A stretch of 64,000 nt of DNA from Candidatus Liptonbacteria bacterium (GCA_023244895.1 JAHFLL010000001.1:745802-809801); one strand, 5' to 3'; shown: positions 10,395-57,848, counted from the first letter of the stretch. The notes: a model not told the origin generated them from the sequence alone. Program-made: numbers and translations.

Positions 10395-10491
10395 CTAGAA
10401 GTATAGACCCGACCCTGGTTTTGGACAAATTTTAAGGCGCGTCCCCACTGGGAGACGCGCCTCATACGAGCCCGGACGCTATCCGGGCAAT

Positions 10492-11301
10492 CTATCTAAT
10501 GAGCGGAGCGACGAGTGTGCGCAGCTCGTCCGAGAGCTGGCGCGAGCACGCGATCACAATCGGGAACTTGCGCTGCCCGATTTCCGGATCCGCGAGATCC
10601 GGAACCGGCTCGTCCGCGGCTACGCCAGTCACGACGCAACCGGCCGCCCGGCAGATGGGGATGGCGGCAGCTACATCGAAGATGGTAGCGCCGGCGTGGA
10701 CATAGGCGTCCAACTTGCCCTGTGCCACCAGCATCGCCTCCCACACGAAGGAATTGATCATGCCGGTCATGCGGGCTTTCTGCCGGACATCCACGAATAC
10801 AGATTCCAACCCGGGCCAAGCTCCCACATCGACGAGAGCATCCCGAAGTCTGCAAGGGGAGGGCGACTCGACTCGGAGGTCGAAAGTTGCGGACAGGTCA
10901 CATTCGTAGCTCATACCCGCCTTGCCGTCGTCTTCCACCCAGAACCAGCTGCCCGCGCCGTCCACGGGTAGATAGATCATGCCGAACCCCCGGACGGTAC
11001 CGGCAGAGAGACCCCAGTAGTCCGACCCGCCGGCATAGTTCGCGGTTCCATCGATTGGGTCCAGAAACCATGTCCTCCCGCCAGTGAAGAATTCTCCTTC
11101 TTCGCTCATGATGCCGTCGCTGGGGAACATCTGGCGTAGCGCGACTGCGAGGATTCTTTCCGACTTCAGATCCGCTTCGGTCACAACGTCTTGAGGGGAG
11201 GTTTTGTCTTTGACCTCCATGCCCTCGCGAAGCGCTTCCAGGGCGGCGCTCCCCGCCTGAGTCATCGCGCTGGCCAGAGCCAGAATTTCTTCTCTAGTCA
11301 C
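10492..11301 (-). CDS. Inositol monophosphatase family phosphatase (GC-rich island A)
   Basis: It carries the WFLDPIDGTANYAGG signature of the IMPase/CysQ/SuhB family. GC content is about 65 %, against about 45 % for the flanking genes. Confidence 0.6.
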   Translation of the reverse strand: MTREEILALASAMTQAGSAALEALREGMEVKDKTSPQDVVTEADLKSERILAVALRQMFPSDGIMSEEGEFFTGGRTWFLDPIDGTANYAGGSDYWGLSAGTVRGFGMIYLPVDGAGSWFWVEDDGKAGMSYECDLSATFDLRVESPSPCRLRDALVDVGAWPGLESVFVDVRQKARMTGMINSFVWEAMLVAQGKLDAYVHAGATIFDVAAAIPICRAAGCVVTGVAADEPVPDLADPEIGQRKFPIVIACSRQLSDELRTLVAPLIR

Positions 11302-11302
11302 G

Positions 11303-11890
11303 CTACACCCCCTTCTCTAGGAAGTTGACTGCCCAGCGCGTTGCCTGGACTGACTTGGCGTCCGAAATCAGGCCGTCGTCACACATTGCGACCCAGTCTG
11401 CCAGGTCGTAGAGAACCGGCAGGATGAGCTCGGTCCCATCCGGCTTCGGCTCCTGCACGAGCTCACATTCTTGAGCGACAGCCACCAGGCCCTCCATGCG
11501 TAAGGAGGCGGGGTCAACGAATACTCTGCGATCCCAGAAGATGTGAATGTATCTGGGCCAGTAGCCGGTCTCCTCGACCAACTCCACTCTGACCACATCC
11601 TCGTGGGTCTGCCCGGCCTTGGGATTGCCCCCAGGTAGCTCCAAGATCCAGGCGTTAATCGCGTGGCGATACTGCCAGGTCACAATGACTTCGTTTGCCT
11701 TGGTGACCGGAAAGATGAACACCGGTCGGGTGTTGGCGCCGAACAACCAAAAGTCGGCGGTTTTCCCGTCCGGATAGGAGAAGTCCTGAGAGAACATTCT
11801 CCTGCCGTACCTCTGGAGCTGAACCTGTTCGGGACCCAGTTGGGGCGAAATCCTAGCTGCCGGGACCTCGCCTCTTCGCAACTTCAGCAT
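11303..11890 (-). CDS. Nudix-family hydrolase (GC-rich island A)
   Basis: It has a Nudix-like box GGNPKAGQTHEDVVRVELVEETGY with one residue of slippage. The gene is GC-rich, has a GGGGGA-type RBS, and its stop is 2 nt from the IMPase start. Confidence 0.45.
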   Translation of the reverse strand: MLKLRRGEVPAARISPQLGPEQVQLQRYGRRMFSQDFSYPDGKTADFWLFGANTRPVFIFPVTKANEVIVTWQYRHAINAWILELPGGNPKAGQTHEDVVRVELVEETGYWPRYIHIFWDRRVFVDPASLRMEGLVAVAQECELVQEPKPDGTELILPVLYDLADWVAMCDDGLISDAKSVQATRWAVNFLEKGV

Positions 11891-11971
11891 CTTGATCCCC
11901 CGCTACAAACCACAACGTATTCCTATGCAGGTCCCGGGTGGGACCCAGGACCGACTAGGCCAAGTTATAAA

Positions 11972-12001
11972 TTAAAAAACCATTTCAGTCAATAAAATGG
12001 T
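11972..12001 (-). terminator. Rho-independent terminator downstream of gmd
   Basis: On the minus strand there is a hairpin ACCATTTT-ATTGACTGA-AAATGGT followed by TTTTTTAATTT. Confidence 0.5.
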
Positions 12002-12050
12002 CTCTCGAAGAAAACCCTAAAAATATTAAATACTTGTCGCCTGCTACTAC

Positions 12051-13046
12051 CTATTTCTCACTTCCCAACAATTTTATGTCCGCATCTACCATAATCTTTA
12101 CCAAATCCTCAAACTTGGTACTGGCCGTCCAACCCAACTTATTTTTTGCCTTAGTGGTATCCGCGATAAGATTTTCCACTTCCGTCGGGCGATAGTAGCG
12201 CTGATCTATTTCTACATACTTCTCCCAATCCGGTAGACCAGCATATTGGAAAGCCGCTACTAGAAACTCTTTAACAGAATGACTCTCGCCAGTGCCGATC
12301 ACGTAATCTTCCGCCACAGGTTGCTGGAGCATCAGCCACATTGCTTCCACATATTCTTTGGCATAACCCCAATCGCGCCTGGCCTCCAAATTTCCTAAGT
12401 ATAACTTCTTGTCTAGGCCTGCTTTTATGCGTGCTATTCCGCGAGTTATTTTTCTGGTAACGAACGTCTCCCCCCTGCGCGGACTTTCATGATTGAAGAG
12501 GATACCGTTTACCGCGAACATTCCGTACGCCTCCCGGTAGTTACGGGTCATGTAATACGCGAATGCCTTAGAGGCACCATAGGGACTGCGCGGATAGAAA
12601 ACGGAGTTCTCGTTTTGGGGGGGTGGCGTAGCGCCAAACATTTCCGAACTGGAAGCCTGGTAAAACTTTATCTTCCGGTCGGTATCTTCCTGATAATCCT
12701 TAACGGCCTCTAATACTCGCAAAGCACCGAGCCCGGTAATATTCGCGGTATACTCCGGAATATCAAACGATACGCGCACATGAGATTGAGCGCCTAAGTT
12801 ATATATTTCATCCGGTTGAATTTGATAAATCAGCTTGCGCAAAGTACTGGAGTCAGACAGGTCCCCATAATGCAACTTAAAAACATACTTATCCGCATGC
12901 GGGTCCTGATAAATATGATCTACCCGACTAGTATTAAAGGTGGAGGCACGCCTCATCACGCCGTGAACCTCGTATCCTTTTTGGAGCAGAAACTCCGCCA
13001 GATAGCTACCGTCTTGTCCGGTTATGCCGAAAATTAACGCCCTCAT
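12051..13046 (-). CDS. gmd: GDP-mannose 4,6-dehydratase
   Basis: The N-terminus [46 protein letters not shown] is canonical Gmd, as is the whole 331 aa protein. Confidence 0.85.
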
Positions 13047-13675: not shown

Positions 13676-13680
13676 AGAAA

Positions 13681-16768: not shown

Positions 16769-17188
16769 CTACCATAAGAATGGGGGTAGAAAGAGAAATC
16801 CTATCAGTATGTTTACGACTGATAATATTAAAACGTAAGTCTTCCCGTCCAAAAAATCTTTATCCGCAGTTTCGGAATTGAGTTTACGATAGATCAGGCC
16901 TGTATTAATCACCCACCCAATCACAAAACAGAACAGGCTAAATATAATCTCTGCAATAATGGCAAAATCGTCCGAAGGGGCTTTTATTAGAACTATTATG
17001 GGATAGGCAACAGCCATAACCAACCCCAGGAATATTGCCGGGATAGTTTTCTTCGTGCTCTTTTTGTTTGCACTCCCCGCATCTCGTTCTCCGGACCACC
17101 TCAATCTTAATATGACATATAAAACTATAAGAGCCACTACTACCGCGACAAATAGGATTAGCTCCGAATTCAACATTATTGTTTCCAT
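16769..17188 (-). CDS. Small integral membrane protein
   Basis: It has four predicted TM helices and no recognisable family. Confidence 0.35.
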   Translation of the reverse strand: METIMLNSELILFVAVVVALIVLYVILRLRWSGERDAGSANKKSTKKTIPAIFLGLVMAVAYPIIVLIKAPSDDFAIIAEIIFSLFCFVIGWVINTGLIYRKLNSETADKDFLDGKTYVLILSVVNILIGFLFLPPFLW

Positions 17189-19427: not shown

Positions 19428-19440
19428 GTATCCGAGCTTT

Positions 19441-21235: not shown

Positions 21236-21277
21236 CCTCTTCCCTAATTCCAATTCCTAATTCATAATTCTACCTGC

Positions 21278-25434: not shown

Positions 25435-25527
25435 CATATTTTCATTATTGTTGGGCCAGTTCCAGCTATGCGGCTGGATCGATTTTACGTAACCAATAGG
25501 CAGGCGCCCTGGCGCCGAGGAGGCTAA

Positions 25528-26295
25528 TTGCTGAGGCGAAAAATCGGGAACGTGGCAGGCGTGGGTATCATCTACCGGGCAATCGACCCGGGAAAGATAT
25601 TCACCGAGGTCAAAGATGACGGCCTGCCAGCCGTTGTGTTCCGGCGGGGACTGTGCACGCCGGGCGGCAACTGGATCGGCGAGGCGGCGCGAGCGGATAC
25701 CAATCCGCTCGCCACCTACCGACGCGAGATCGGCGAAGAGTTGTCGCTCGAGAGAGCGGCCGCCTCCACGCTGGAATCGCGACTGTTGGGCATGGAACCC
25801 GACGGCAATTTCTACTTGGTGCCTCGGGCGAACGTCAAGCCCACCCCTGGCCAGATCTCGGCTCTCGCGGACATCAAGAGGGTCATCATCGAGGGGGCAA
25901 CACCATTCGTGGACCTGCTCAACACCACCCCACGGGCGGTGCTGGATCGCGCGGACGCCAACAACAAGAAGGGCGACATCATCGCTGTGGTGTCCTACTT
26001 CGCGACTGCATTGCGGGAACCGGAATGGCACGAGCTAGCCGCCCTGCAAGCGGCCTTCGGCAACTTGTCCAACGAGAGCATCACACTCGTCACCTCGCTG
26101 GACGAGATTATCACCAATGGCATGCGCTGGGCCTATGGCCACGAACACGCCATGCGCCGCTTTTTCCTGGCCTTCGGGCTCGAGGCAGCGAAGGACATGC
26201 TTGAGACGGAAGACGTCACGAGTGAATGCCTCGGGACGCCCCGGGCGTCGTACGACGACTACCTGGTTGAGTTTGACATCGAGCGCCGTCCATAG
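25528..26295 (+). CDS. Hypothetical Nudix-like protein with an expanded Nudix box (GC-rich island B)
   Basis: It has a beta-grasp-like N-terminus and a box PGGNWIGE-x13-RREIGEELSL (Nudix-like, but with 13 rather than 7 residues between the E and the RE). It lies in an island of about 65 % GC and is followed by a GC-rich terminator hairpin. Confidence 0.35.
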   Translation: MLRRKIGNVAGVGIIYRAIDPGKIFTEVKDDGLPAVVFRRGLCTPGGNWIGEAARADTNPLATYRREIGEELSLERAAASTLESRLLGMEPDGNFYLVPRANVKPTPGQISALADIKRVIIEGATPFVDLLNTTPRAVLDRADANNKKGDIIAVVSYFATALREPEWHELAALQAAFGNLSNESITLVTSLDEIITNGMRWAYGHEHAMRRFFLAFGLEAAKDMLETEDVTSECLGTPRASYDDYLVEFDIERRP

Positions 26296-26322
26296 AACAA
26301 GGCGGACGGCGCAGTAGCACAA

Positions 26323-26368
26323 GCAGCGCGGTCGGGAATCTAATCCCTTCCGCGCTGTTCGTTTTTTT
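26323..26368 (+). terminator. Rho-independent terminator of the island-B gene
   Basis: The stem CAGCGCGG...CCGCGCTG is followed by GTTTTTTT. Confidence 0.5.
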
Positions 26369-28044: not shown

Positions 28045-31000
28045 TTAAGCCTTGGATAAAGACAATCTTATTTCTTTTCCATCTAAAGTTATCTTTTCTC
28101 CCGCATCTCCCTCCGTTATGTCGGAAATATAAGTCTTCTCGCGGTTAAATGCTTGCACGGCTTTGTTAAGATCTGCATCTCCCGTTTTATATGTCAGCTT
28201 GGCCATTTCTCCCACTTTCATACCGCCCTGTTTGCGCAATTCTTGTATGGCTCGCTCTAAACCCCTCACCAATCCCTCTAGGCGCAATTCATCGCTGATA
28301 GTCGCGTCTAAAACAACTTCCTCTTTTTGATCGGGATCTATCTTAATGTTCTTCACATTTAACTCCTCGCAAAGTATCTTCAATAATCCTTCCTGACCCT
28401 TTAATTCTTTATTCCTAATTCCTAATTCCTGGAGCGGTTGGCGCACCGGAATGTTTAATTCCTTGCGCTTTGCCATGCCCATACTCGCGGCTTCTCGCAC
28501 CACCTTCATTTGGCTAAGCAATTCTTTCTCCTCCTGGGATAATTCTTTCTTAATTGGCCAATCTACCAGATGCACCGATTCATAAGCAGTGGGGGTTGGT
28601 CCGGAAGTTTGAATGGTAAGCCCTTCGTAGTCGGCCGCAGTGAGGCTCTTATAAATTAATTCTGATAGATACGGCATGACTGGGGCTGATGCTTTCGCGA
28701 GATTGATAAGGGCATGACGCAGTGTGCCGAAAAAGTACGCATCCGCCCGGCCCCGACTGCGACGCAAATACCAAGTAGAAAGATCGTCTATATATTCCGC
28801 AATGAAGCGGGTCGCGCGCACGGTATCGTATGCATCCAAACTGTCCGTCACGCCATTTACCAGTTCTTTAGTGCGAGCCCAAATCCATTTATCCAGAACA
28901 TTGGATAACTGTTCTATGTTTAATGTCCCATGTTTTGTGTCCTTCGGCGCGTAGGTCAAAAAATAATTCAACACATTCCAAGGAATGAGCACCATCTTGC
29001 GATACAGGTCGCCCAATTCCCGCTCGCTAAAGTTCAAATTGTCCGCCTGCATTACGCTAGAGTTCATTAGATAGAAACGCAAGGCGTCTACGCCATACTT
29101 CTCTATCACCACCCATGGGTCCGGATAGTTCTTCTTGGACTTGCTCATCTTGGAACCATCCTCAGCTAGAATCGTTCCGGTTGTGACCACGTTCTCAAAA
29201 GGCGCCTTGCCGAAGAGTTCTATGGATAAAACATGCATCACATAAAACCAGGCGCGAGTCTGGGCGATATACTCCGCCACAAACTGACCAGGGAAACGAG
29301 CTTCAAAAACTTCTTTCTGGTCAAAAGGATAATGGAATTCCGCGAAAGGCATAGAGCCCGCCTCTACCCAGGAATCAAATATCTCCGGTACGCGCTTGGC
29401 ATTCTTGCCGCACTTGTCGCATTTAAGAATAATCTGATCAATGTGCGGGCGGTGCAGGTCTGTGATGCTAACGTCCAGCGAGAAGACCTTAGCGAACCTT
29501 GGCACAGGAGGTAGCTCCGACCCATAATATTGCATAAGCACATACAACGGGTCGCCGTGCGAAACAATCAGTATTTTCTTGCCGGAATATTCGCGGTTCT
29601 TTTCGTTAATAAAATCGACCATGCGCTCCCGAACACTGGTTCGCGTCTCCCCGCCCTCCGGACACCTAGTCCACCGCTCCGAACCTGGAAAGTCCCTCTC
29701 AAACTCAGCGTACGTTTTGCCGTTGTAATCCCCGACTCCAAGCTCTCGTAAGCGCTCATCAAATTCAAGCGGAACGCCCAGCGCGGCCGCCAGGGTTTCG
29801 GCGGTTTGTTTGGTACGCGTTATGTCTGACGCGAAAATCATATCTACCCCACCCATTTCCCCTAGGTGTCCCGCCAGATCTTTTACGCGCTTCACGCCCT
29901 CCTTGGTTAGATTATATTTTTCCGGTTCTGGCCAGCAGTTATTCAATCCTAAAACATTATTTTCTCCTTCTCCGTGCCGGGTAAATAAAAATGTATTTTT
30001 TTCTAATCCCAGCTCCTTAATACTGCCAACTACTTTATTTTCTCCACAAGACTCACACTTCCAAACCGGGATGGGGTTGCCCCAGTAGCGATTGCGGGAA
30101 ATGTTCCAATCCGGCGCCTGCTCCACGCTCTTTTCATATCGGCCATGCTTCAAGTGCCCCGGATACCAGTTAATCTCCTTCTTGTTAGACTCAACCAACT
30201 TGCCCTTTATTTTCTGGATATTGATAAACCAGGCCGGAATAGCGTTATAGAAAAGCTTATTGCCGCATCTCCAGCAGTGCGGATAGGAGTGAGGGTAGTC
30301 CTGTTTAGAGAATAGCAATCCATCCTTCTCCAGCTCTTCCACGACCATCTTGTTGGCCTTCTCAAAATACTGTCCCCTTAAAAATCCGGGAGCCTTCTCG
30401 TTAAAATGACCCTTACCGTCCAAGAGCGGGACAACCGGCAGTCCGTACTTCAGTCCCAAATCATAGTCGTCTTCTCCGTAAACGACGGCAGTGTGCACTA
30501 TGCCGGTTCCGTCTTCGGTGGTAACGAAATCCGCCGGATAAACCTGGAAGGTCTTGTCGGTCTGCACGGCTGGGACATCAAACAATGCCTCATACTTCAG
30601 ACCAATCAGGCTCTTGCCGGGAATGTCTGATCTCTCTACCTCCGGCTGACTCGGAAAAACTTTGCTGACTAGATCCTTCGCTAGAACATATCTATTTCCT
30701 TCCAGCGTCGCGACGACGTATTCAACATTCTCCCCTACCGCCAAGGCGACGTTCCCCGGCAGAGTCCAGGGTGTAGTTGTCCAGGCTAACAGGTATGTAT
30801 TTTCCGGTACGGACCAGCCACCTATCTTTTGACCCGGCACAACTTTAAATTTCGCCGTGAGAGAGGTGTCGGTTACATCTTTATAGGAATTATCCATCGC
30901 CACTTCAAAGTTTGAGACTGGTGTCTCGCAGCGCGGACAATACATCAAAACTTTACGTCCTTCATAAACCAAGCCCTTTTCATAAAACTGCTTGAATCCC

Positions 31001-36074: not shown

Positions 36075-36130
36075 TAGCTTAATTATATAACTTTATCTAT
36101 TTCATTCCAATTCCCAATTCTAATTCTCAA

Positions 36131-37985: not shown

Positions 37986-38258
37986 TCACGTCGCTAACTT
38001 CGTAGGTAGCCCCTTAGAAAATCTATCTATAAGCATTTCCTTCTTATCTCTGCGCCATTTCTTGATTTGAACTTCTCGGTGGCGAGCCTCGTTTAATGTA
38101 TCGTGCCTTTCATAAAATACAACGCTAAATATTGACTTACCTTTTGTAAATTGAGCGCCCTGTTTTGAGTTGTGATGTTTTAGCCTGCTCTCAATGTCTT
38201 TTGTTATACCAACATACAACTTCCCAAAATCATTTCTAATCATATACACAAAGAACAT
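37986..38258 (-). CDS. GIY-YIG nuclease-domain small protein
   Basis: It is 90 aa and has the motif FFVYMIRNDFGKLYVGITKDIESRLKHHN, the GIY-YIG signature with its conserved Arg and His. Confidence 0.6.
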   Translation of the reverse strand: MFFVYMIRNDFGKLYVGITKDIESRLKHHNSKQGAQFTKGKSIFSVVFYERHDTLNEARHREVQIKKWRRDKKEMLIDRFSKGLPTKLAT

Positions 38259-38389: not shown

Positions 38390-38399
38390 ACGAGTCGAG

Positions 38400-38722
38400 T
38401 GGAGATGGGCGGAGTCGAACCGCCGTGTAAGACAGAAACCGATGAATCATCTACGAGTGTAGTTCGCTAAAGCGGACAAACACTCCACATTCTTTCGCGC
38501 CATATGCGGTGGAGCACGTATATATGGCCCTAGCCTCCTTGTATAAGACCGGTATCAAGCTAAGAGGCCCAGCCTGGCCGATCCTCCAGACGCTACGCGT
38601 TAAACGTAGGCGAAAGCTGGAGCTGCAACTTTATTGTTGGCAGTTAAGATTTTTGCCAGATTTACGAGGTGGCACTCGACTCGCCGATTCAAGGTACTGA
38701 CTTATCGAAGCCGGTCATCCCC
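38400..38722 (-). ncRNA. ssrA: tmRNA (SsrA), about 323 nt without CCA
   Basis: On the minus strand the 5' end reads GGGGATGACCGGCTTCGATAAG and the 3' end reads GGCGGTTCGACTCCGCCCATCTCCA. The T-arm is GGCGG-TTCGACT-CCGCC. The acceptor stem GGGGATG/CATCTCC contains the G3-U70 alanine identity pair. The candidate in-frame tag is GCC-AAC-AAT-AAA-GTT-GCA-GCT-CCA-GCT-TTC-GCC-TAC-GTT-TAA (ANNKVAAPAFAYV*), which is tentative. smpB lies 4 kb away. Confidence 0.75.
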
Positions 38723-38845
38723 GTTTTCGATTGCTCTTATATTCTAACATAAATTTATATTATTGACAATATCCCATATCAAGTGATATAACCTGGCCAG
38801 CCGTCGCGCACGATCGCGCGACACAATGATTCTGGGGGTAAATCC

Positions 38846-39406
38846 ATGGGACTTCCGCCATACCTGTGCTTTGACAGAGAGATCTGCAAGTCGACAGTCG
38901 AAACCCTGCTGACAAAGCTCCGTAGCGCGAACTCCACAAATCGCGTGTACGTGAGCTCGCCCGGAGGGACGTTCGACTTTTTTTCGGTGCTCGGCCCGGC
39001 TATCCAACGCCAGGGCATCGTGACCCTGTCGGGCGACGTCCGCTCGGCAGCAGTCGTCCTCTTCCTGCTTGGACACGTACGGCAGGCCCTGCCGGACGCG
39101 ACATTCTTCTTCCACGAAGTGAGGACGTTCGTCGGCCAGGGCAACCAGATCACCGTGGCCGACCTGGAACACGCCGAGGAGTATGAGCGGATGATGTCTG
39201 CTGAAGGACAGGAGGCGTACCAGGAATGGCGCCAGAGCATGAAGATGGCCCAGGCTTGGTTCGCGCGCTTCATCTCCACCCAGACCGGACTCCCCGCGAG
39301 CACGTTCCTCAATCTCATGCGTGCCGAGGCAACCCTCTCCGCTCGGGAGGCAGTTCGGTACGGCATCGTGCACGAGATCGTGCCGGCCAGACTCGTCTGG
39401 AAATAG
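38846..39406 (+). CDS. ClpP-family (S14) serine peptidase-like protein, short form (GC-rich island C)
   Basis: It aligns to the ClpP core: SSPGGTFDFFSVLGPAIQRQGIVTLSGDVRSAAVVLFLLGH carries the Ser of the GxS motif, FFFHEV carries the His, and the C-terminus reads LSAREAVRYGIVHEIV. It is GC-rich with a GGGGG RBS. The opposite-strand ORFs are R-rich antisense artefacts. Confidence 0.5.
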   Translation: MGLPPYLCFDREICKSTVETLLTKLRSANSTNRVYVSSPGGTFDFFSVLGPAIQRQGIVTLSGDVRSAAVVLFLLGHVRQALPDATFFFHEVRTFVGQGNQITVADLEHAEEYERMMSAEGQEAYQEWRQSMKMAQAWFARFISTQTGLPASTFLNLMRAEATLSAREAVRYGIVHEIVPARLVWK

Positions 39407-39530
39407 CGACAGTGGACGGGCACGCGCAGCGCGTGCCTGCCCCAACCTCAGTTTGGGAAATTTTCGCAAATTGAGGTTGGGTAAAAATTTATTAAACGAA
39501 ACGGGCCCGGTCGCGAATGACCAAGCCCGT

Positions 39531-40295
39531 CTATCTTACTTTGTCACCATTCCCGTTTTGAGGCGGGAAACGGCGACGCAACTCCCGCAAGATGGGTTCG
39601 GCCTCTTTTTGCCGCTTCTCCCGCTGGAGCAGTTCTGCTAAGGCGAATTTGGCTTCCGCCACATCCAGCTCAGAGCAGGAAGAACAAGAGGTGGCCCGAT
39701 GAATGTGCGCGAGGGCCTTGTCGTGGCTACCTCCGCCCAGGAGCCGGCGTACTGCCCAAGAACGTTCGGCGACAACCTGCTCGATCCAGCCCAGAGCGGT
39801 AAGCGCCCGCGCGTGATTAGGGTCGCGCACCAACACTCTCTCTAACCCGGCGCGGGCAGAGCGATACTCACCGAGCCCGGTCTTGCGGTCCAACACCTGT
39901 AGGTTCAGCCACAGCTTATTGAGATGTAGCTTTGCCAACAGAAACTCGCAGCGGGCGTTGCGGGGAGAGTCGCGCAGGCACCTCTCGGCTTGGCGAACTC
40001 CCTCCGCCTGCAGTCTTAAGAATTCGGCTAGCGTACTCGGGTCGGGGGCCTGTTTGCTAAGTAATAGACCCGAACCATTCACGCCCGCCTGTTTCCGAAG
40101 CCGGAAGAGTAGCGCGCTGGTATGCGCCTCGTAGCTCTCCGGATCGTCCGGAAACAGCTTACGAGCCGCAGTTGCCCGCGTTGCCGCTACTTGGAAGTCC
40201 TGCCTGAAAAACGCTTCTCGGGACGCGTTTATTCTGGTCTCATACTCGGCGGGCAGGGCGAGCATGAGCAGAAGTCCCCAAATGGACCAGTTCAT
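39531..40295 (-). CDS. Secreted helical (TPR-like) hypothetical protein (GC-rich island C)
   Basis: It has a signal peptide MNWSIWGLLLMLALPA, a repetitive helical composition, and a GGAGG RBS. Confidence 0.35.
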   Translation of the reverse strand: MNWSIWGLLLMLALPAEYETRINASREAFFRQDFQVAATRATAARKLFPDDPESYEAHTSALLFRLRKQAGVNGSGLLLSKQAPDPSTLAEFLRLQAEGVRQAERCLRDSPRNARCEFLLAKLHLNKLWLNLQVLDRKTGLGEYRSARAGLERVLVRDPNHARALTALGWIEQVVAERSWAVRRLLGGGSHDKALAHIHRATSCSSCSELDVAEAKFALAELLQREKRQKEAEPILRELRRRFPPQNGNGDKVR

Positions 40296-40372
40296 GTTGC
40301 ACCTCCCCGTGCTGGTTCGGATTCTAGCAGGAAAAGTTTTGGGCGCAAGTTAAGTAATGTTAAAATAACCTC

Positions 40373-41248: not shown

Positions 41249-41321
41249 CCTTATTTGACTTTTTAGAAATTTATTATAAAATGTAGCCCTGTTCTTTGAA
41301 GGGGATGGAGGTCCCCTGCTG

Positions 41322-42173
41322 ATGACTATCCGACTTCTTGTTGCGGCGCTAGCGTTCCTGCTTTTCGTTCCCATAGGGGTATCGGCGCAGGACGCCAAGC
41401 CTAGTCCGTGGTCGGGGTTCGCGTACATACACCTCAACACGGATACGAGCCGCGACGGAGGGAAGATGGAAATCCCCCGAGCGCGGCTACGCCTGACACG
41501 TAAACCCCAAGAGGGTTGCGCGGCGGGGCAGGTGGAACTTGACCCGTCTGACCAGAGCTGGGTCCACCAGGCCTGGCTGGCCTGTCACACGGAAAACGGC
41601 TGGGCCATGAAGATTGGGCGGGTGTTTCTGTCCGCGCTGACTCAGAGCCCGCCGCCCTTCCTCCTCCGGGAGGTGGGGTATCAAGGAAGCTATCCCTACA
41701 ACGCCTACGCCTATGGGGCGCAGGTAGAGGGTCCGTTGGGAAGGGGTTGGAAGGTCGGAGTCGACTTCACTGGCAAGTCCGGACTCGACTTCTCCGCGCC
41801 GGGGCAGTTCCGGGGCATGGAGGTCTCCCTGCTCGTCTCTCGGAAGAAGGGGGTTGTGGGGTACGGCTTTGCGGCCCAGGTCGGAAGCGACATCGCGTCG
41901 CGCTACGGCCTAAATGGCGAGTGGCGCGCGAAGCGTTTTACACTCAGCGGGCTCGTAAGCTACGCGACTGAGCGCAAACACGCGGAAGGGTTCGTGGTCG
42001 CAGAGCTTCGCCTAACCGAATTCCTCCAGCCGTACTTCCAGCTGGACCGGAGCAAGGGCCACACCACCTGGCTCCTCGGCCTCCAGTTCCGGCCAAGCGG
42101 CAACGTCTTTCTGGTCGCCGACGCGAATCGCGCGCGGGCGGCCACCAGGACGCAGGTTTTCTTCAAGAAGTAG
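41322..42173 (+). CDS. Secreted beta-rich protein, possible beta-barrel (GC-rich island D)
   Basis: It has a signal peptide (LLFVPIGVSA-QD) and alternating hydrophobic strands (RFTLSGLVSYATE, GFVVAELRLTEF, TTWLLGLQF). It is a paralog of the island-E protein and has a GGAGG RBS. Confidence 0.4.
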   Translation: MTIRLLVAALAFLLFVPIGVSAQDAKPSPWSGFAYIHLNTDTSRDGGKMEIPRARLRLTRKPQEGCAAGQVELDPSDQSWVHQAWLACHTENGWAMKIGRVFLSALTQSPPPFLLREVGYQGSYPYNAYAYGAQVEGPLGRGWKVGVDFTGKSGLDFSAPGQFRGMEVSLLVSRKKGVVGYGFAAQVGSDIASRYGLNGEWRAKRFTLSGLVSYATERKHAEGFVVAELRLTEFLQPYFQLDRSKGHTTWLLGLQFRPSGNVFLVADANRARAATRTQVFFKK

Positions 42174-42179
42174 TAGCGA

Positions 42180-42205
42180 GGCAGGACGGCAACGCGTCGT
42201 CCTGC
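42180..42205 (+). terminator. GC-rich hairpin terminating the island-D gene
   Basis: The hairpin is GGCAGGACG-GCAACGC-CGTCCTGCC. Confidence 0.4.
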
Positions 42206-42207
42206 CC

Positions 42208-42247
42208 GCTCAATCCGAGCTCAGAATTATTTCTGAATTCGGATTGA
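42208..42247 (+). promoter_or_regulatory. Long (18 bp stem) hairpin or extended palindrome upstream of capA
   Basis: CTCAATCCGAGCTCAGAATTATTTCTGAATTCGGATTGAG pairs from its ends with one wobble, one mismatch and a four-nt loop. Confidence 0.4.
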
Positions 42248-42301
42248 GCCACGCGGACTGATTTGGCACGATTTTATCTTCCGCGCTAAGATTGGAGCGA
42301 G

Positions 42302-43988: not shown

Positions 43989-44040
43989 ACAGCGACCCGA
44001 ATGTCACGAATTACATACGAATTACCCGAATAATAAAAAC

Positions 44041-44601: not shown

Positions 44602-44625
44602 AATAATTCCACACGAAACTTGTAC

Positions 44626-44651
44626 GCGCCCCCGCCGATTGACGGGGGCGC
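44626..44651. terminator. GC-rich bidirectional hairpin between rplT and the island-E gene
   Basis: The hairpin is GCGCCCCCG-CCGATTGA-CGGGGGCGC. Confidence 0.45.
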
Positions 44652-44658
44652 GTTCGTT

Positions 44659-45324
44659 CTAGCGCAAAAACACGATGTACCAGCGCAGAAAGTTGCGGTC
44701 GTTCCGGAGCTGGTATGCGGCGGTGAGCGCGATTTTGCGCGCGCCGAGATGTGGGAGCGGCCGCAAGACCAGGCTCACTCGTGGACCCGCGCCCCAGGAA
44801 TCCCGGCCATGAAAACGGCTCACCACCTCAGATTCCGCTCCGACTCGCAGGACCATGCCTGCGGTATCCAGTTTAGCAGAACTGGAGGCTACGGGTGCGT
44901 CCGTGGAAATAAAGGAGATGGTGCGAGCGGACTGGCCACGGGGGTAGAGGTGGGCTTCTCCGTAAAGATTCCACTCCCCGATTTTGCGCAGACCGCGCAG
45001 ATTGAAGGCTGGCTCCAAGCGGATCGCTCCTCCCTGATTGACCCGCGCGCCGATCAGGAACTCCACCCAGTTGGGTTTACTGGCCCAACCGACACCAACC
45101 AGGCTTAAAGAGGTGGCGCCCGTGCTCGTGCCCTCTTTATTGACCGCAGTCATGTCCGGCAGGACCAGCCATCCTGCCAGGGACCAGCCCGATTGGGCGG
45201 GCTGCTGGTGGAACGCGAGCCGGACTTGTGTCTCCGTGCCGTTCTGCGCCATCGCTGGCATAGCCCAAAGGAACGCGAAAAGCACGGTGATCGTGGCGAC
45301 GAGCATCTTAATATTAAGACCCAT
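44659..45324 (-). CDS. Secreted beta-rich protein, paralog of 41322..42173 (GC-rich island E)
   Basis: It has a signal peptide (VLFAFLWAMPAMA-QNG) and is similar in length and strand pattern to the island-D protein. The start is set at MGLNI (45324), which is preceded by a GGGAAGG RBS. Confidence 0.4.
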   Translation of the reverse strand: MGLNIKMLVATITVLFAFLWAMPAMAQNGTETQVRLAFHQQPAQSGWSLAGWLVLPDMTAVNKEGTSTGATSLSLVGVGWASKPNWVEFLIGARVNQGGAIRLEPAFNLRGLRKIGEWNLYGEAHLYPRGQSARTISFISTDAPVASSSAKLDTAGMVLRVGAESEVVSRFHGRDSWGAGPRVSLVLRPLPHLGARKIALTAAYQLRNDRNFLRWYIVFLR

Positions 45325-45423
45325 GATGCGCCTTCCCTTCTGTCTTAGTTTCAAGATATTTAATTCTCAAGGCTTAAGTGTCAGGATTGACACTCTGGCC
45401 CTAATCATTCATAGTTAGGCAGT

Positions 45424-45459
45424 GGTGGCCAAGACCACCAATGGGTGGTATATACCACC
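45424..45459. promoter_or_regulatory. Two adjacent GGTGG-N6-CCACC palindromes (candidate operator) upstream of the TrmB-family regulator gene
   Basis: TGGTGG-CCAAGA-CCACCA at 45423-45440 and GGTGG-TATATA-CCACC at 45444-45459 lie in the divergent promoter region between the island-E gene and the TrmB regulator gene. Confidence 0.4.
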
Positions 45460-45571
45460 ACATAGTTCTTGATAATATTTGATCTTCTACTGCAGGCATT
45501 ACAGACGCGTGCTAAAGAAAGCGGGCTGCCTACGAGAAAAAACATGTCGTTAGATTTACATAAATATTAAA

Positions 45572-46345: not shown

Positions 46346-47058
46346 TTCGCGCACCACATATCAAAAATACCCCAAGTGGGATATTTTTGATTTATACTCT
46401 CACCGTTTTAATCCACGATATAATCCCGAACTAAAACGGTTGGAGGTCGGACGCATTGCGCGCCCGACCTCCGGATTCTGTCTGCAGGTGTCCCTATCCT
46501 GCACGGGGCCGACACTGCCGTCGACAGCCTCCAGTGTGTTTTTTACGCATCCCTGGATACAGCGTTCGACCTTAGTCGTGGTCAACGACTAGGTCGCAGC
46601 GAACCTTCTTCGCGGGGGTCTTTTCGCCACAGGCCACCCCACCGGCTAGTTCGCACATCGCCTTTCGCCAGCCTGGTTCTGCTACGCAGGAAGCCCTACG
46701 GGCTCCTGTTTCATAACGACACGCTTTCCCTCCTTGGATCTTTGGGATCCGCGTAAAACGACGGTCAATGCGGCGACCGCCAACCGTGCCCCACCAATAA
46801 GCGGAGCAAGTAATACCGGGGTGTTCTTATCCCCAGCGCCAAATATCTAAACCGACATTACAAACACTTAAATGGATAATTCTATTTAGATACTTAGCGC
46901 TAGGGACACCTTAAAAGAACTCCTCGTCTCAATCTACAAACTATCATTTATAGATTGAGGTAGGAGTCCCAACATGCGACGTATCGCAGTTGGGACCCAA
47001 GATGTTGTGGAGTGGACTGATGGAGAATCAGTCGCGGACTCCTATTTCAGCTACCCGC

Positions 47059-47631
47059 CTAGAAGACGGCGGGCCGCACTACCGGGATCGGGTGGGGCTT
47101 TGTCCATGTTGCCCCGACCAGCCCAGCGGCGTGGACCTCGGCCAGTCGCTCCTTGGGAACGATCCAGCCCCGCGTGCCACTAACCGAGAAGTCGGCGACA
47201 GCGAACTCGTCGCCGAACCCGACTGGCTGAAACCCACCGGGGCTATACAGTACCGGGAGGCCCAACTCACGGCAGCCGCGGCGGAGCGGCAGGTCACGCA
47301 ACAGCTCGATTTCGCAACCGGGCCAGTACGCTCCCTCCCTCATCGCCCGCGCGAACCGCAGGTGGCGACAGGAGTGCCCACCGCGCGAGCCCCCTTCCAC
47401 TACGACGATCGCGTCATTGGTAAAGGTGAAGGTCGCGCCATTAACCCCCATCCAGTCCTCGATCGGCTTGTCGCAAGTCGCGACCTGCAGGACGTCGGGG
47501 GTAGCGATGATGGCCACCCACAACTTCCATCCGGCCGGGACGAACATCGGGGTCTGCTCGTAGGCGTCCATCCGCCAGCTGGCGGGCAGGTCTGCCACCG
47601 GCTGCACGAATCTTCCTGATAGTCCTGACAT
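47059..47631 (-). CDS. Hypothetical protein (GC-rich island F)
   Basis: The ORF has strong GC3 bias and a GGAGGTGGTC-ATG RBS at the in-frame Met MSGLSG. The opposite-strand ORF 46990..47619 is Pro/Arg/Gly-rich and judged to be an antisense artefact. Confidence 0.4.
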   Translation of the reverse strand: MSGLSGRFVQPVADLPASWRMDAYEQTPMFVPAGWKLWVAIIATPDVLQVATCDKPIEDWMGVNGATFTFTNDAIVVVEGGSRGGHSCRHLRFARAMREGAYWPGCEIELLRDLPLRRGCRELGLPVLYSPGGFQPVGFGDEFAVADFSVSGTRGWIVPKERLAEVHAAGLVGATWTKPHPIPVVRPAVF

Positions 47632-47865
47632 GACCACCTCCACGAAGGTTGCAGGTCCCACCGCCTGCGATTAATTTTGAACATCGCCGTGGGGAGCGAT
47701 GTTTTCGGCAGAGTACTTAAAAATCAATAAATATTAATTCCTAAATACTCCGCCGAAAATCAACTTATCTCAAGGTACTATTCAAGCTTACTCTCTTATT
47801 ATACCACATAATATGCCATATTGTCAAGTGTAAAATAGCCCTATTTTACCTATATAAAAACACGA

Positions 47866-51370: not shown

Positions 51371-51719
51371 ATATTAATAAAACCGGAGGTAATAATATCC
51401 AGAATAGGTAAATAGCCAAAAAGACGACTCCGCTTATAAGATAGAAAATGCCGCCAATCAGCACGCGCAGGGAGCGGAAAACCACCCCTAAGATACGCCC
51501 GATTATAGAGTAGTCTTTGTAGAGCGGTTGAAAGAAGTGTTTAAGGGTAACTCTAAGCGCAAAAGTCCGGTCACGCTCCTCCAAAAAATCTATAAACTTA
51601 TGCGAGAACCAGATGGAGCCATCCATGTACCAATGGTGGTAGAAATCAAAAGCCCGCTCAATGGCCCGGTAGGCGATATAGACCGGCGCGAAGTTCATGG
51701 ATACATTATACAAAAGCAA
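51345..51719 (-). CDS. Small hypothetical membrane protein
   Basis: It has a C-terminal TM helix. Its 3' end overlaps the Clp-like gene start, or abuts it if the Clp protein starts at Met21. Confidence 0.3.
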   Translation of the reverse strand: MLLYNVSMNFAPVYIAYRAIERAFDFYHHWYMDGSIWFSHKFIDFLEERDRTFALRVTLKHFFQPLYKDYSIIGRILGVVFRSLRVLIGGIFYLISGVVFLAIYLFWILLPPVLLIYGSSIFFQ

Positions 51720-51775
51720 CCCGAATACTACGAATTACATCCTAATTATCCAAAAATGATTTGGGTCATTTGGAT

Positions 51776-51848
51776 GCGATTCGAAACATTCGGGTCGCTA
51801 ACCTTTATTCGGATCATTCGGGTGTGATTATAAATATTCGGGTCGCTA
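51776..51848. repeat. Iterated ATTCGG(G/A)T(C)GCTA-type direct repeats (4-5 copies)
   Basis: The copies are cgattcgaaac, cattcgggtcgcta, tattcggatc, cattcgggtgtga and tattcgggtcgcta. They lie between the UDG stop and the start of the next minus-strand gene. Confidence 0.5.
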
Positions 51849-53481: not shown

Positions 53482-53665
53482 TGCTCCCGACAGGAATTGA
53501 ACCTGTATCGCCTCCCCCGCCCCGCACCTTTTGCCTACGTGCCCCCGGTTGGAATCGAACCAGCATTTCCTCCTTCGGAGGGAGATGTCCTATCCATTGA
53601 ACGACGAGGGCTTTATAAGGTGCGGGGTGAAGAGGGAGATGTCCTATCCGTTGAACGACGAGAGC
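53482..53665 (-). other. Split tRNA-like gene whose 5' half (53632-53665) and 3' half (53482-53515) flank the tRNA-Arg(CCG) gene
   Basis: The 5' half GCTCTCGTCGTTCAACGGATAGGACATCTCCCTC is a near-copy of the inner tRNA's 5' half. The 3' half GGAGG-CGAT-ACAGG-TTCAATT-CCTGT-CGGGAGC-A supplies an anticodon-stem 3' strand, a perfect T-arm and an acceptor 3' strand complementary to the upstream half, including a compensatory 3-70 T-A pair. An 11 bp inverted repeat CCCCGCACCTT / AAGGTGCGGGG brackets the inner tRNA. Confidence 0.3.
53540..53611 (-). tRNA. tRNA-Arg (anticodon CCG), 72 nt
   Basis: The acceptor stem is GCCCTCG/CGGGGGC with one G-U pair. D-arm is GTTC-AATGGATA-GGAC. Anticodon stem is TCTCC/GGAGG with loop CTCCGAA. 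T-arm is GCTGG-TTCGATT-CCAAC with one C-A mismatch. Confidence 0.7.
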
Positions 53666-53675
53666 TTTTACGCGC

Positions 53676-54791: not shown

Positions 54792-54803
54792 CTATCTTCA
54801 AAC

Positions 54804-55190
54804 TTATTTTGCCAAGTAAACTAAATCTCCTTCTCGCACCTTCTTCTTAACCTTAAGACCTATCTCCTTACCCTTAGGCGCCAGCTTAATTGGTTTGTGA
54901 TCATACTGCATAGAAACAATTTTATCCTCAAATTTAGTGGTGGCGCCTTCAAAGCGTAATTTTGCGCCGACTCTTACCGGCTGTCTAAATTTTATAATCG
55001 CGACCCGAATATTCCCGTAAAAATGAGTTACCGTTCCAAGTGGTTTATTTGGCTTGATCTTAGGAGTCGTCTTTTTGGCAGTAACTTTTCTGGCAATTTT
55101 CTTAACCGTTTTCTTAACCGATTTTTTTACGGTCTTCTTTGTCTTTTTCTTACCTGTTGTTTTCTTGGGCATAGTGGTGAGCTTTATCAT
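54804..55190 (-). CDS. Lysine-rich (histone H1-like N-terminus) small protein with a beta-barrel-like C-terminal domain
   Basis: The N-terminus is a KKTTGKKKTKKTVKKSVKK low-complexity basic tail, and the C-terminal 80 aa are rich in beta-strand pattern. Confidence 0.35.
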   Translation of the reverse strand: MIKLTTMPKKTTGKKKTKKTVKKSVKKTVKKIARKVTAKKTTPKIKPNKPLGTVTHFYGNIRVAIIKFRQPVRVGAKLRFEGATTKFEDKIVSMQYDHKPIKLAPKGKEIGLKVKKKVREGDLVYLAK

Positions 55191-55917: not shown

Positions 55918-57211
55918 GTTGCAGGTCTGATTTTATTTTGCCTGCCAGAACCATAGAAGACTCTTCTTCGCCCTGCACCACAAATACCTTTTTTACCGAA
56001 CTACGCATATGGCCCAACCATTCTAAGAGACGAGGCTGGTCGGCGTGGGCGGAATAGGCCGAAATACTCCTTTTCTCGCAACGTACCGGAACGTCTTCTC
56101 CATGTATCCTAACCTCTTGCGCACCATCTATTATTCTCCTGCCTAAAGTGTTTTTGGCTTGATAGCCCACAAACAAAATCATACTGTTCGGATCGGGCAG
56201 GTAGCGTATCTCGTGATGCAATATCCGTCCGCCGTTCGACATGCCCGACCCGGCAATAATTATTTTAGGGTTAGGCACGTGGTTTATTTCTTTGGACTGC
56301 TCGGTAGTGAGGGTCATGTGCAGTCCCGGAAAGTTAAAGATATCGTCTCCGGACTTTATGATCTCATTGTCAAAATAGTCCTCAAACTTTTTGTACACCT
56401 CCGTTAATTTTATGGCTAAGGGGCTGTCTATATAGACCGGCACGTGCGGTATTTTTTTGCTCTCCACTAAACGATTGATATGAAAAAGAAGGTCCTGAGT
56501 GCGCTCCATCGCGAAAGCAGGAATAATAAGCGCGCCACCCGTCTTTATAACCCTCTCAATCGCCCCCTCCAACTCCTGCTCCCTACGCTCGGTTGGCTCA
56601 TGGACGCGGTCACCATAAGTGGACTCTATTAAAACAAAGTCTGCCGAGGCGAGCATTTCCGTGTCCTGAATTATCGGGGCGGGAAAGTTGCCGAGGTCGC
56701 CGGAGAAAACAATGCTTTTGCCCTCCGCTTCTATTCTGTAACACGCCGAACCAAGAATGTGCCCGGCATTATAGGGCGTAACTTTGACATCGCCAATGCC
56801 GGTTGTCTCGTGATATTTAATATTGTGCCAAACCGACATCGCACCCTCCACATCAGCAGTTTCATATAAACTCGGGTAGCCCTCCTGCGCCGCTTCTTTT
56901 TGAAGAACATGCTCAGAATCCAATAGGAGATATTCACTGGAGTCCTTGGTGGGCGCGGTGGAATATATTTTTCCCCGAAAACCGTCCTTCCAAAGTTTGG
57001 GGATACGACCGGTGTGGTCAATATGGGCGTGAGTTACGAAAAGAGCGTCTATCTCGGTTGGGTCATAGGGAAATGGCTCAAAATTTTGGAGTTCCGCAAA
57101 TCTGCTACCCTGGGCCATTCCGCAATCTATTAATATTTTTTTACCACCCGCCTCCAATAAATAGTTCGCGCCCGTCACTTCTCCCGCTCCTCCGCAAAAA
57201 GTTAATTTCAT
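55874..57211 (-). CDS. MBL-fold beta-CASP metallo-hydrolase (RNA-metabolising, RNase J/CPSF-like)
   Basis: It has the HxHxDH motif FVTHAHIDHTG and is 445 aa with beta-CASP architecture. It is the second beta-CASP protein in the window. Confidence 0.65.
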   Translation of the reverse strand: MKLTFCGGAGEVTGANYLLEAGGKKILIDCGMAQGSRFAELQNFEPFPYDPTEIDALFVTHAHIDHTGRIPKLWKDGFRGKIYSTAPTKDSSEYLLLDSEHVLQKEAAQEGYPSLYETADVEGAMSVWHNIKYHETTGIGDVKVTPYNAGHILGSACYRIEAEGKSIVFSGDLGNFPAPIIQDTEMLASADFVLIESTYGDRVHEPTERREQELEGAIERVIKTGGALIIPAFAMERTQDLLFHINRLVESKKIPHVPVYIDSPLAIKLTEVYKKFEDYFDNEIIKSGDDIFNFPGLHMTLTTEQSKEINHVPNPKIIIAGSGMSNGGRILHHEIRYLPDPNSMILFVGYQAKNTLGRRIIDGAQEVRIHGEDVPVRCEKRSISAYSAHADQPRLLEWLGHMRSSVKKVFVVQGEEESSMVLAGKIKSDLQLETVVPKSGESVVL

Positions 57212-57322
57212 TCATTTGATTATAACAGTAAGCGGACAAAGCAGAAATGATTGACACAAAACAATTTTTGACGCATAAAAAAGATAGCAATTCGGCAACG
57301 GCCTTTCTTTTGGGGGGTAGGC

Positions 57323-57616
57323 ATGAATGGACTGGTACTTCACTCTAAAGTCGTGCGCCACCCCAAATCCGACCGGATAACGGGGGTGGAGGTAAGCGAC
57401 GGAGAGACGACGCTCTGTTTCTATCGTCGCATAAAACCGGACCCGAACAAGTTACCGGTAGTGTGCGGTTCGCCCCCAGACGCGCCCTGGCAAGAATCAC
57501 GAAAGAGACTTCCCGGCTGGCAGTTCTATGCCTTTGCGGAAGAGGCGATGAAGCGGTTCGGCATTGAACCGCCCCATGGATATACCGGACGACAGAGAGG
57601 CAGGAGGTGGAGATGA
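57323..57616 (+). CDS. Hypothetical protein (GC-rich island G)
   Basis: It is GC-rich with a GGGGGGTAGGC-ATG RBS and is 97 aa. The confidence is low. Confidence 0.3.
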   Translation: MNGLVLHSKVVRHPKSDRITGVEVSDGETTLCFYRRIKPDPNKLPVVCGSPPDAPWQESRKRLPGWQFYAFAEEAMKRFGIEPPHGYTGRQRGRRWR

Positions 57617-57816
57617 TTCCGAAGGCCACGCCCGTGAACATCGCTATGCTCGGCTGGATACTTTCGGGCGTGGGCTGTCTGACGACCGCGGTTTGCGCCT
57701 ACTCCCAAGACCGCGCTCTCCAGGACAGGGCGAACGCGCTCATCCTCTTCGGACTGGCCCTGGTCGCGACGGCCATTTTCCGAGCGTTTAAGCAGGGCAA
57801 GACAAAGCGAGAATAA
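57607..57816 (+). CDS. Small two-TM membrane protein (GC-rich island G)
   Basis: A GGAGGTGGAG-ATG start overlaps the upstream stop, which suggests coupling. It has two hydrophobic helices and is followed by hairpin 57817-57840. Confidence 0.3.
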   Translation: MEMIPKATPVNIAMLGWILSGVGCLTTAVCAYSQDRALQDRANALILFGLALVATAIFRAFKQGKTKRE

Positions 57817-57848
57817 GGACGGACCAGAGCTGGTCCGTCCTTCGCACA

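Follow-up and report, generated by a model that had tools for sequence, protein, structure and literature searches.

The 64,000-nucleotide (nt) stretch of DNA analyzed here (the window; Candidatus Liptonbacteria bacterium, GCA_023244895.1, JAHFLL010000001.1:745802-809801) contains seven GC-rich islands, numbered by position (Table 1), which are set into a backbone with genes for TrpRS, IleRS, ArgRS, RNase J, RNase Y, IF3, L20, SmpB, a ClpB-like ATPase, a Mur ligase, RuvA and CTP synthase. This housekeeping content, together with the nearest labelled genome (a metagenome-assembled genome of Ca. Liptonbacteria) and the closest named homolog of the IMPase encoded by island 1 ('Candidatus Paceibacterota'), identifies the window as chromosomal DNA from an ultra-small, ~0.84 Mb genome of groundwater Patescibacteria (candidate phyla radiation, CPR) related to Ca. 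Liptonbacteria and Paceibacterota. The islands differ from this backbone in composition, in codon usage and in the signals that surround their genes.

Composition and expression signals of islands and backbone

A preliminary description of the window, made from its sequence, had reported a mosaic of short GC-rich islands in a backbone of about 45% GC. In a 150-nt sliding profile, with segments defined as exceeding 56% GC, this mosaic is recovered as eight sharp-edged segments of 59-66% GC that coincide with the islands, while the backbone is somewhat richer than had been supposed, at 47-48% GC in a window of 48.5% GC overall. GC content at third codon positions (GC3), taken from the best-supported open reading frames (ORFs) of each segment, is 0.60-0.80 in island genes against 0.516±0.048 in 48 backbone genes, whose maximum is 0.58; the two sets do not overlap (Mann-Whitney p=2e-6), and the difference in codon usage that the preliminary description implied is therefore real. 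First and second codon positions (GC1 and GC2) are shifted as well, and the island proteins are enriched in Ala, Arg, Gly, Pro and Trp and depleted in Lys, Ile, Asn and Tyr. The GC-normalized dinucleotide signature (delta*x1000) departs by 94-183 in the islands compared with 69±23 in backbone chunks, and lies beyond the backbone 95th percentile in seven of nine island pieces.

The two gene sets also differ at their 5' and 3' ends. A Shine-Dalgarno (SD) sequence, scored as a GGAGG, GGGGG or GAGGA 5-mer located 4-18 nt 5' of the start codon, precedes nine of the ten island genes and one of the 48 backbone genes (Fisher p=9e-9), much as the preliminary description had it. Strict -10 boxes (TA[TAG]A[AT]T) occur upstream of 14 backbone genes, and 10 of these boxes begin 12-13 nt before the ATG; this leaderless geometry suggests that backbone mRNAs are mostly of the leaderless type. 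No publication on SD or leaderless usage in CPR bacteria was found in the literature searched. Downstream, the 70 nt 3' of the stop codon have a mean folding energy of -31 kcal/mol in the islands and -12.5 kcal/mol in the backbone (p=1e-4), and the post-stop regions of island genes contain perfect 8-14-bp GC stems. Each island had been credited with its own GC-rich terminator hairpin, and the far stronger 3' folding agrees with this, although most of the hairpins lack a U-tract. In every island the GC-rich stretch starts directly 3' of an AT-rich -10-like box, so that one island corresponds to one transcribed unit. Read from its sequence, each island is a complete accessory transcription unit composed of an AT-rich sigma-70-type promoter, a GC-rich leader with an SD, one or two ORFs and a strong GC hairpin. 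These units are intergenic and lie between conserved housekeeping genes that lack an SD.

Sharp GC steps, and nothing else in the data, would also fit an artefact of assembly or binning in which high-GC contaminant reads were joined chimerically into a low-GC contig, a concern that the preliminary description had itself raised. We give this explanation almost no weight. A 60-kb Logan contig (SRR14366796_329761) is 100% identical to positions 492-31234, through islands 1 and 2; NCBI and ENA hold a contig of 840,672 bp on which the island proteins also occur; and orthologous islands with the same flanks are present in 4+4+4+1+1 independent assemblies. An identical independent assembly and syntenic orthologous islands in other metagenomes exclude a chimeric assembly.

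Table 1. Coordinates of islands, their components and further features. Positions refer to the window unless a contig of a relative (L with a number) is named.
Feature	Position	Strand	Description
GC-rich segment	10475-11875		60.5% GC
GC-rich segment	25525-26300		61.7% GC
GC-rich segment	38925-40250		60.5% GC
GC-rich segment	41375-42175		63.9% GC
GC-rich segment	44675-45250		63% GC
GC-rich segment	46500-46750		59% GC
GC-rich segment	47025-47625		65.5% GC
GC-rich segment	57425-57800		60.5% GC
Island 1	10436-11965	-	two-gene unit; 5' untranslated region (UTR) with hairpin
Nudix gene, island 1	11303-11890	-	Pfam NUDIX 9e-8; GGGGG upstream
IMPase-family gene, island 1	10492-11301	-	Pfam Inositol_P 2.4e-28; GGGGG upstream
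Two GC hairpins, island 1	10436-10462, 10470-10488		
Island 2	25470-26368	+	5'UTR, GAGGAGG SD, gene, hairpin with T-run 26322-26368
Island 2 gene	25528-26295	+	255 aa, uncharacterized family; GC3 0.80
tmRNA gene	38397-38722	-	Rfam RF00023, 122 bits; 5' side abuts island 3
Island 3a	38790-39491	+	5'UTR hairpin, GGGGG SD, gene, two hairpins 39412-39491
Divergent ClpP-like gene, island 3a	38846-39406	+	GC3 0.79
Island 3b	39492-40330	-	GGGGAGG SD, gene, hairpin 39501-39530
TPR-repeat gene, island 3b	39531-40295	-	hydrophobic N-terminus; TPR_14 and TPR_16 matches; GC3 0.67
Island 4	41249-42301	+	1053-nt insertion between EamA and PGA_cap
Island 4 promoter	41255-41282	+	TTGACT-16-TAAAAT
Island 4 gene, predicted porin-like beta-barrel	41322-42173	+	283 aa, signal peptide, GGAGG SD; GC3 0.77
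Two hairpins, island 4	42176-42245		
New TAAGAT box for PGA_cap	42263-42292	+	within island 4
Island 5	44624-45376	-	short leader AAGGGAAGG; 3' hairpin 44624-44653
Island 5 gene	44659-45324	-	221 aa, signal peptide, beta-rich; GC3 0.72
Island 6	46346-47865	-	promoter, ~160-nt leader, GGAGG SD, gene, non-coding segment
Island 6 promoter	47827-47798	-	perfect sigma-70 TTGACA-18-TATAAT
Island 6 orphan gene	47059-47631	-	190 aa; true start 47631, preceded by GGAGGTGGTC; GC3 0.80
GC-rich non-coding segment, island 6	46436-46830		395 nt
Island 7	57300-57845	+	two overlapping small ORFs; hairpin 57817-57841
Island 7 ORF 1	57323-57616	+	97 aa; SD GGGGGG
Island 7 ORF 2	57613-57816	+	67 aa, membrane-like; SD GGAGG
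AT-rich intergenic repeats, both families	43991-44034, 51715-51848; also 21240-21271, 28405-28429, 36097-36120, 59835-59854		
Island 4 homolog	L017		adjoins SSB/S6; 55% GC vs ~40%
Island 4 homolog	L061		between fusA and tuf; GC3 0.65 vs 0.30-0.38
Other islets	L017 5439-6143; L004 14978-15568; L025 6406-6954; L046 19632-20054		

Gene content of the islands

Island 1 sits inside a polysaccharide gene cluster, and the IMPase and Nudix families previously named for its two genes (GC3 0.76 and 0.72) both agree with Pfam matches. The IMPase-family protein scores 99.8 bits against PF00459 (cut-off 27) and 92.7 against the HisN equivalog, below the cut-off of 275 for that model. It has three close homologs, at least two of them in CPR islands, and the remainder are at most 31% identical, with actinobacterial HisN-like proteins ranking first. 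The protein of island 2 had been called Nudix-like, a label that we do not retain: it has no match in Pfam, NCBIfam or PDB sequences, a 44-sequence profile is likewise empty in PDB sequences, and the family, which comprises more than 100 clusters at 50% identity, conserves GGNWIG...RExxEEL, an atypical RExxEE motif with 13 residues (not 7) between Glu and RE. When the island 1 Nudix protein and the island 2 protein were compared, they proved to be unrelated. Amino acid composition across the island 2 family is mostly of the low-GC type, and one member on a 36% GC contig has a native low GC (GC3 0.33) with an SD present. GC-richness was accordingly rejected as an intrinsic trait of this family; it belongs to the copies of the present lineage.

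Island 3 consists of two convergent genes beside the tmRNA gene, for which ARAGORN gives the tag peptide ANNKVAAPAFAYV. The ClpP-like protein of island 3a matches Pfam CLP_protease in its C-terminal part only (residues 131-180, 1.3e-8); it has a weak partial match to ClpP in PDB over residues 32-118 (4e-5) and weak matches to phage head-maturation proteases (NCBIfam 3e-4, PHROG 8e-8). Island 3b, thought earlier to encode a helical secreted protein, encodes a TPR protein. In the related contig L023 the interval of the TPR gene is instead occupied by a normal-GC gene of 247 amino acids (aa) and a 104-aa ORF, and the hairpin block 3' of the ClpP-like gene (39419-39491) is 92% identical to that of the window. 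Where the two sequences are aligned (L023 1-119 and window 39380-39491), the 46 coding nt before the hairpin block end a different-looking GC-rich frame. The hairpin block being kept behind a different frame, one terminator module may follow different cargo genes.

The tmRNA gene at the edge of island 3 and the weak phage-protease matches of its ClpP-like protein would fit the view that the islands are remnants of integrated mobile elements, either morons of a prophage or islands that once targeted the tmRNA gene and have since decayed. Phage morons, as described by Hendrix and colleagues, are self-contained promoter-gene-terminator units of deviant composition located between genes that are adjacent in relatives, and the layout of the islands, with its own promoter, terminator and odd composition, recalls them. 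Nevertheless, we consider such an origin to have little chance of being correct. No other phage gene and no integrase or transposase gene was found among the window ORFs scanned with Pfam, the flanks are housekeeping genes, and no direct repeats accompany the islands. The usual attachment (att) site is on the 3' side, but island 3 adjoins the tmRNA gene on its 5' side. IMG/VR viral contigs contain no close relatives of the ClpP-like, island 2 or island 4 proteins, and with these three scans empty and PHROG matches confined to the ClpP-like protein, a phage origin was rejected. PADLOC returned no defence system, and PLSDB plasmids match neither the island 4 protein nor the non-coding DNA of island 6.

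For island 4 the empty site is known. The island is absent from L023 (82-89% nt identity) and from L003, where 9 nt and 1 nt, respectively, separate the EamA stop from the PGA_cap start, and in the window the same gene pair is split by 1053 extra nt that bring their own promoter and a new promoter for the downstream gene. No target-site duplication is present at this site, in line with the preliminary description, which had reported neither integrase, transposase nor duplication. An AlphaFold2 (AF2) model built on an 18-sequence alignment (a 2-sequence run with a predicted local distance difference test score, pLDDT, of 40 was not used) gives a confident 16-strand antiparallel barrel with pLDDT 84.8 and a predicted template modeling score (pTM) of 0.78. 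Its best Foldseek matches in PDB are OmpC, OmpF, OmpK36, OmpU and a Rhodobacter porin (E~1e-10, TM 0.62-0.70), and nearly all of the top 50 PDB matches are bacterial outer-membrane porins or engineered variants. On this model the island is predicted to encode a 16-strand porin-like beta-barrel, which shares with the general porins of Gram-negative bacteria both the predicted strand number and an N-terminal signal peptide. Most remote members of the family end in ...Q-x-x-F (F or W), as general porins do. In contrast to these, the window copy ends in ...VFFKK and the relative P0122 in LMIKR, lacking the terminal aromatic beta-signal; no porin family of Pfam is matched, and solved porins share 10-16% sequence identity with the protein. 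Its gene is moreover carried by a CPR bacterium, a group in which the few cells described so far are monoderm (PMC8871954). No Omp85 gene was found among the window ORFs scanned, which cover 64 kb of the ~840 kb genome. Homologs of the island 4 protein form one cluster at 39% identity in a word-indexed search and ~17 clusters at 25-40% in an exhaustive HMMER search. In other small genomes of low GC (L017 and L061, Table 1), homologs stand as lone inserted genes with raised GC and an SD. Another homolog (40% identity) lies beside a TolB-like gene on a contig of uniformly 68% GC, and on account of this uniformity appears native to a high-GC organism.

The products of islands 4 and 5 had been taken for paralogs, but they belong to different families: BLASTP gives E=2.2 and hhalign aligns the signal peptides only. 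Orthologs of island 5 occupy the corresponding site of L003 (50% aa identity) and L024 (36% aa identity, 64% GC), between flanks (IF3, L20, TrmB) that are 83-99% identical at the aa level in these relatives; change at the island 5 locus, whether by sequence evolution or by replacement, evidently far outpaces that of its flanks. An intergenic element (45377-45461), 82% conserved with L024 and containing the palindrome GGTGGTATATACCACC, separates the island 5 promoter from the gene of the TrmB-like regulator and may be an operator.

L051 carries island 6 at 90% nt identity, low-GC flank included. Synonymous divergence (dS) of the gene is 0.36 and the ratio of nonsynonymous to synonymous divergence (dN/dS) 0.17, indicating that the orphan gene is real and constrained; homologs of its protein are limited to one close relative and one 37% match. 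In L024 and L003 the island is missing and TrmB is followed directly by an MGMT-like gene. The non-coding segment of island 6 has no ORF over 61 aa, and its minus strand, which contains several perfect hairpins, folds with z=-4.05. It reaches the gathering threshold of no Rfam family, and its matches by E-value are chance hits to miRNA models; the segment may represent either a structured RNA or the remains of a gene.

Several further features of the backbone were recorded. The IleRS-like gene (28045-31500, minus strand, 1151 aa) has a His_Phos_1 domain (aa 505-660, E=1.3e-31) within its class-I catalytic domain, and the same IleRS and histidine-phosphatase architecture is found in a relative (L053 5565-9233). 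In the region 53539-53668, the 5' 37 nt of tRNA-Arg(CCG) (53578-53614) are repeated 54 nt upstream (53632-53668) at 95% identity, which could be a duplicated tRNA fragment or an unrecognized second gene. Two small families of AT-rich repeats occupy intergenic positions in the backbone, one of the form AGCGACCCGAAT...CGAATTAC in direct and inverted copies and one consisting of AATTCCTAATTC-type pentamer runs.

Conservation, age and source of the islands

The preliminary description read the islands as recent acquisitions. For islands 1 (L012-L015), 2 (L053-L056), 5 (L003, L024) and 7 (L057), orthologs were found at the same syntenic sites in relatives, and the synonymous divergence of these shared islands is about that of the flanking housekeeping genes. 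In four assemblies island 1 again separates the GDP-mannose dehydratase gene from the epimerase gene, and there it has 63-66% GC against a backbone of ~50% and is SD-led. Identity to the window is 74-95% for backbone proteins, 66-68% for the IMPase and 73-77% for the Nudix protein, and synonymous sites are near saturation in island and backbone genes alike. Same-codon retention, defined as the share of conserved residues still using the same codon beyond shuffled expectation, reaches 0.37 in the IMPase gene and 0.17 in the Nudix gene, compared with 0.03-0.24 across the backbone. The island 2 ortholog (51% aa identity) lies immediately 3' of TrpRS and has a retention of 0.21 compared with 0.04-0.12 for the flanking genes; its GC3 is 0.77 in L053 and 0.80 in the window, while backbone GC3 is 0.63-0.72 and 0.55-0.58, respectively. 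ORF 1 of island 7 has an ortholog (78% aa identity) at the same locus of a relative with 83-85% nt identity, and retention is 0.35 compared with 0.30-0.40 in the backbone. Island genes are under purifying selection (dN/dS 0.15-0.3), and in L012-15, L053-56, L024, L057 and L051 the islands at identical loci are GC-rich and SD-led as well. Synteny together with backbone-like divergence indicates that islands 1, 2, 5 and 7, which are kept in the relatives found, are old; sporadic presence at collinear sites is seen for island 4, island 6 and the TPR gene, which by this comparison are the only ones missing from close relatives.

The same phenomenon extends across the clade, since related contigs have islets of their own at other loci: 11 comparable islets, most of them SD-led, were found across ~220 kb of related CPR loci. 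Such GC-rich, SD-led single-gene islets include a B12-binding radical-SAM gene with GC3 0.84 (L012 17118-18650).

Donor searches covered 5.8 and 1.8 billion proteins, including Rifle-type groundwater samples that contain this lineage. The closest non-self homologs of the island proteins are in other CPR islands, and outside these identity does not exceed 31-40%. The preliminary description had proposed that single genes were captured repeatedly and recently from a high-GC donor, with the host of an epibiont as one candidate. Part of this holds: the genes look foreign in composition, dinucleotide signature and SD, islands 4 and 6 are lineage-restricted, and a porin-like fold such as that predicted for island 4 is characteristic of diderms. 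Recency, which is contradicted for islands 1, 2, 5 and 7, and the single donor are not supported, as four of the seven islands are common to distant relatives, no homolog above 40% identity was found outside close relatives even for the youngest island, the island families differ in distribution, and nothing found identifies a host. Only a slight probability can be given to that version. Without a donor above 40% identity a host origin is unsupported, and beyond the one island 4 homolog on the 68% GC contig nothing speaks for or against a host or epibiont origin.

The account that we favor, and hold to be probable, is that the islands are accessory transcription units gained horizontally at different times and then inherited vertically, with their foreign composition kept for unexpectedly long. 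Their sources would be higher-GC, SD-using lineages, likely several, perhaps including Patescibacteria of higher GC and, in the case of the porin-like gene, diderms. Insertion may have occurred by illegitimate recombination at intergenic hot spots, with neither integrase nor target duplication. Islands 1, 2 and 5 would have been acquired before the split from relatives with saturated synonymous sites, and island 7 before the split from the ~84%-nt relative; island 6, common only to a ~90%-nt relative, and island 4 and the TPR gene, missing from ~85%-nt relatives, would be later gains. After insertion, vertical inheritance and purifying selection would have followed, with foreign composition and SD kept far longer than simple amelioration would predict.

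The presumed hot spots also carry material of the opposite composition. A GIY-YIG endonuclease gene (37986-38258, 37% GC) adjoins the tmRNA gene, small genes at 16769-17188 and 54804-55190 have 39-40% GC, and a 38% GC Fic gene is inserted at the island 7 locus in L057 (2819-3937). These AT-rich outliers indicate that the same hot spots take AT-rich cargo too.

Several results weigh against horizontal gain as we propose it. No donor above 40% identity was recovered, and with no integrase or transposase among the scanned ORFs and no terminal or flanking repeats common to the islands or att sites found, the mechanism of insertion is unmarked. Old islands are as GC-rich as young ones (GC3 0.72-0.80 in islands 1 and 2, 0.77-0.80 in islands 4 and 6). 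In a rough two-state neutral model, with codon retention as the clock and backbone GC3 assumed to be the mutational equilibrium, island 1 would have had to start from a GC3 of 0.95 or more and island 2 from one greater than 1; acquisition followed by amelioration alone is thus an incomplete explanation. Persistence of the composition may reflect very GC-rich sources combined with slow decay, or a force that holds GC up. Candidates for such a force are selection tied to SD-led expression or mRNA structure, biased conversion, and repeated allele replacement from a GC-rich pool, the last being hinted at by the pattern of island 5.

The main rival, which we regard as unlikely, holds that the islands are an endogenous class of lineage-intrinsic SD-led genes whose mRNAs and codons are kept GC-rich by selection, or by GC-biased conversion where accessory loci are prone to recombination. 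Such a class would explain why GC-richness is kept over saturating divergence. Islands 1, 2, 5 and 7 are syntenic and have diverged along with the backbone, high GC3 and SD are linked in every relative examined, island GC3 is steady at 0.77-0.80 while backbone GC3 varies by 0.1-0.15 between lineages, and the widespread, mostly low-GC-type island 2 family has an SD even on the 36% GC contig. An endogenous class is, however, difficult to reconcile with the presence and absence of island 4, island 6 and the TPR gene at collinear sites, or with a shift that affects GC1, GC2, amino acid usage, UTRs, hairpins and dinucleotides and not GC3 alone. The island 2 homolog on the 36% GC contig is not GC-rich, and an island 4 homolog lies on a contig of uniformly 68% GC. 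In addition, the GC3 shift of +0.25 far exceeds reported effects of GC-biased gene conversion.

Relation to known transfer units and implications

In groundwater Patescibacteria, horizontal gene transfer and genomic islands comprise up to 13% of genome length (PMC12455944, mSystems 2025), and transfer in aquifer Patescibacteria is abundant, mostly intra-Patescibacteria and mostly not recent, with donors often unrecovered (PMC12455944). Horizontally transferred islets in Patescibacteria are thus already known, and foreign-looking genes as such are not new. The islands resemble the published ones in being compositionally atypical, individually transferred genes of small CPR genomes. They differ in being single transcription units of 0.5-1.5 kb without mobility genes, in being marked by a switch from leaderless-type to SD-led genes (the word 'Shine' is absent from that paper), and in that several of them keep a GC3 excess of +0.2-0.28 across saturating divergence. 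With classical genomic islands they share deviant composition and codon usage, whereas mobility genes, flanking repeats and a donor clade were not found. Like phage morons, they are autonomous promoter-gene-terminator units of deviant composition; unlike morons, they are surrounded by housekeeping chromosomal genes and no prophage, and IMG/VR has no homologs of the proteins scanned. In integron cassettes, including those with isolated attC sites, a single SD-bearing ORF precedes an imperfect palindrome and there is no transposase, a description that the SD-led single ORFs and 3' palindromes of the islands match. Unlike such cassettes, however, the islands have promoter-like sites of their own, their 3' hairpins share no common consensus or R'/R'' cores, and they are scattered in both orientations, with no integrase and no attC-like sites found.

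What is notable here is how cleanly SD-led genes are divided from leaderless-type ones, how long the GC excess has lasted, and that a porin-like barrel gene lies in a CPR genome. Two gene populations separated by composition and initiation mode, with relatives available at several divergences, provide a natural test bed for the rate of amelioration. Sharp GC islets can also be lost or misassigned in composition-based binning, and the accessory genomes of CPR bacteria are maybe undercounted as a result. The confident prediction of a porin-like barrel bears on CPR envelope architecture and on how epibionts tap their hosts. A bolder proposal, to which we assign a distinctly low probability, is that the islets are no imports in decay but a gene set which Paceibacteria-like CPR bacteria express separately and maintain by selection, which includes envelope-interaction proteins and which selection has held off the composition and initiation mode of the backbone over deep time, and that the porin-like barrel may go into the outer membrane of a diderm host. 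If this were true, a porin-like barrel would be made by a cell type thought to have no outer membrane.

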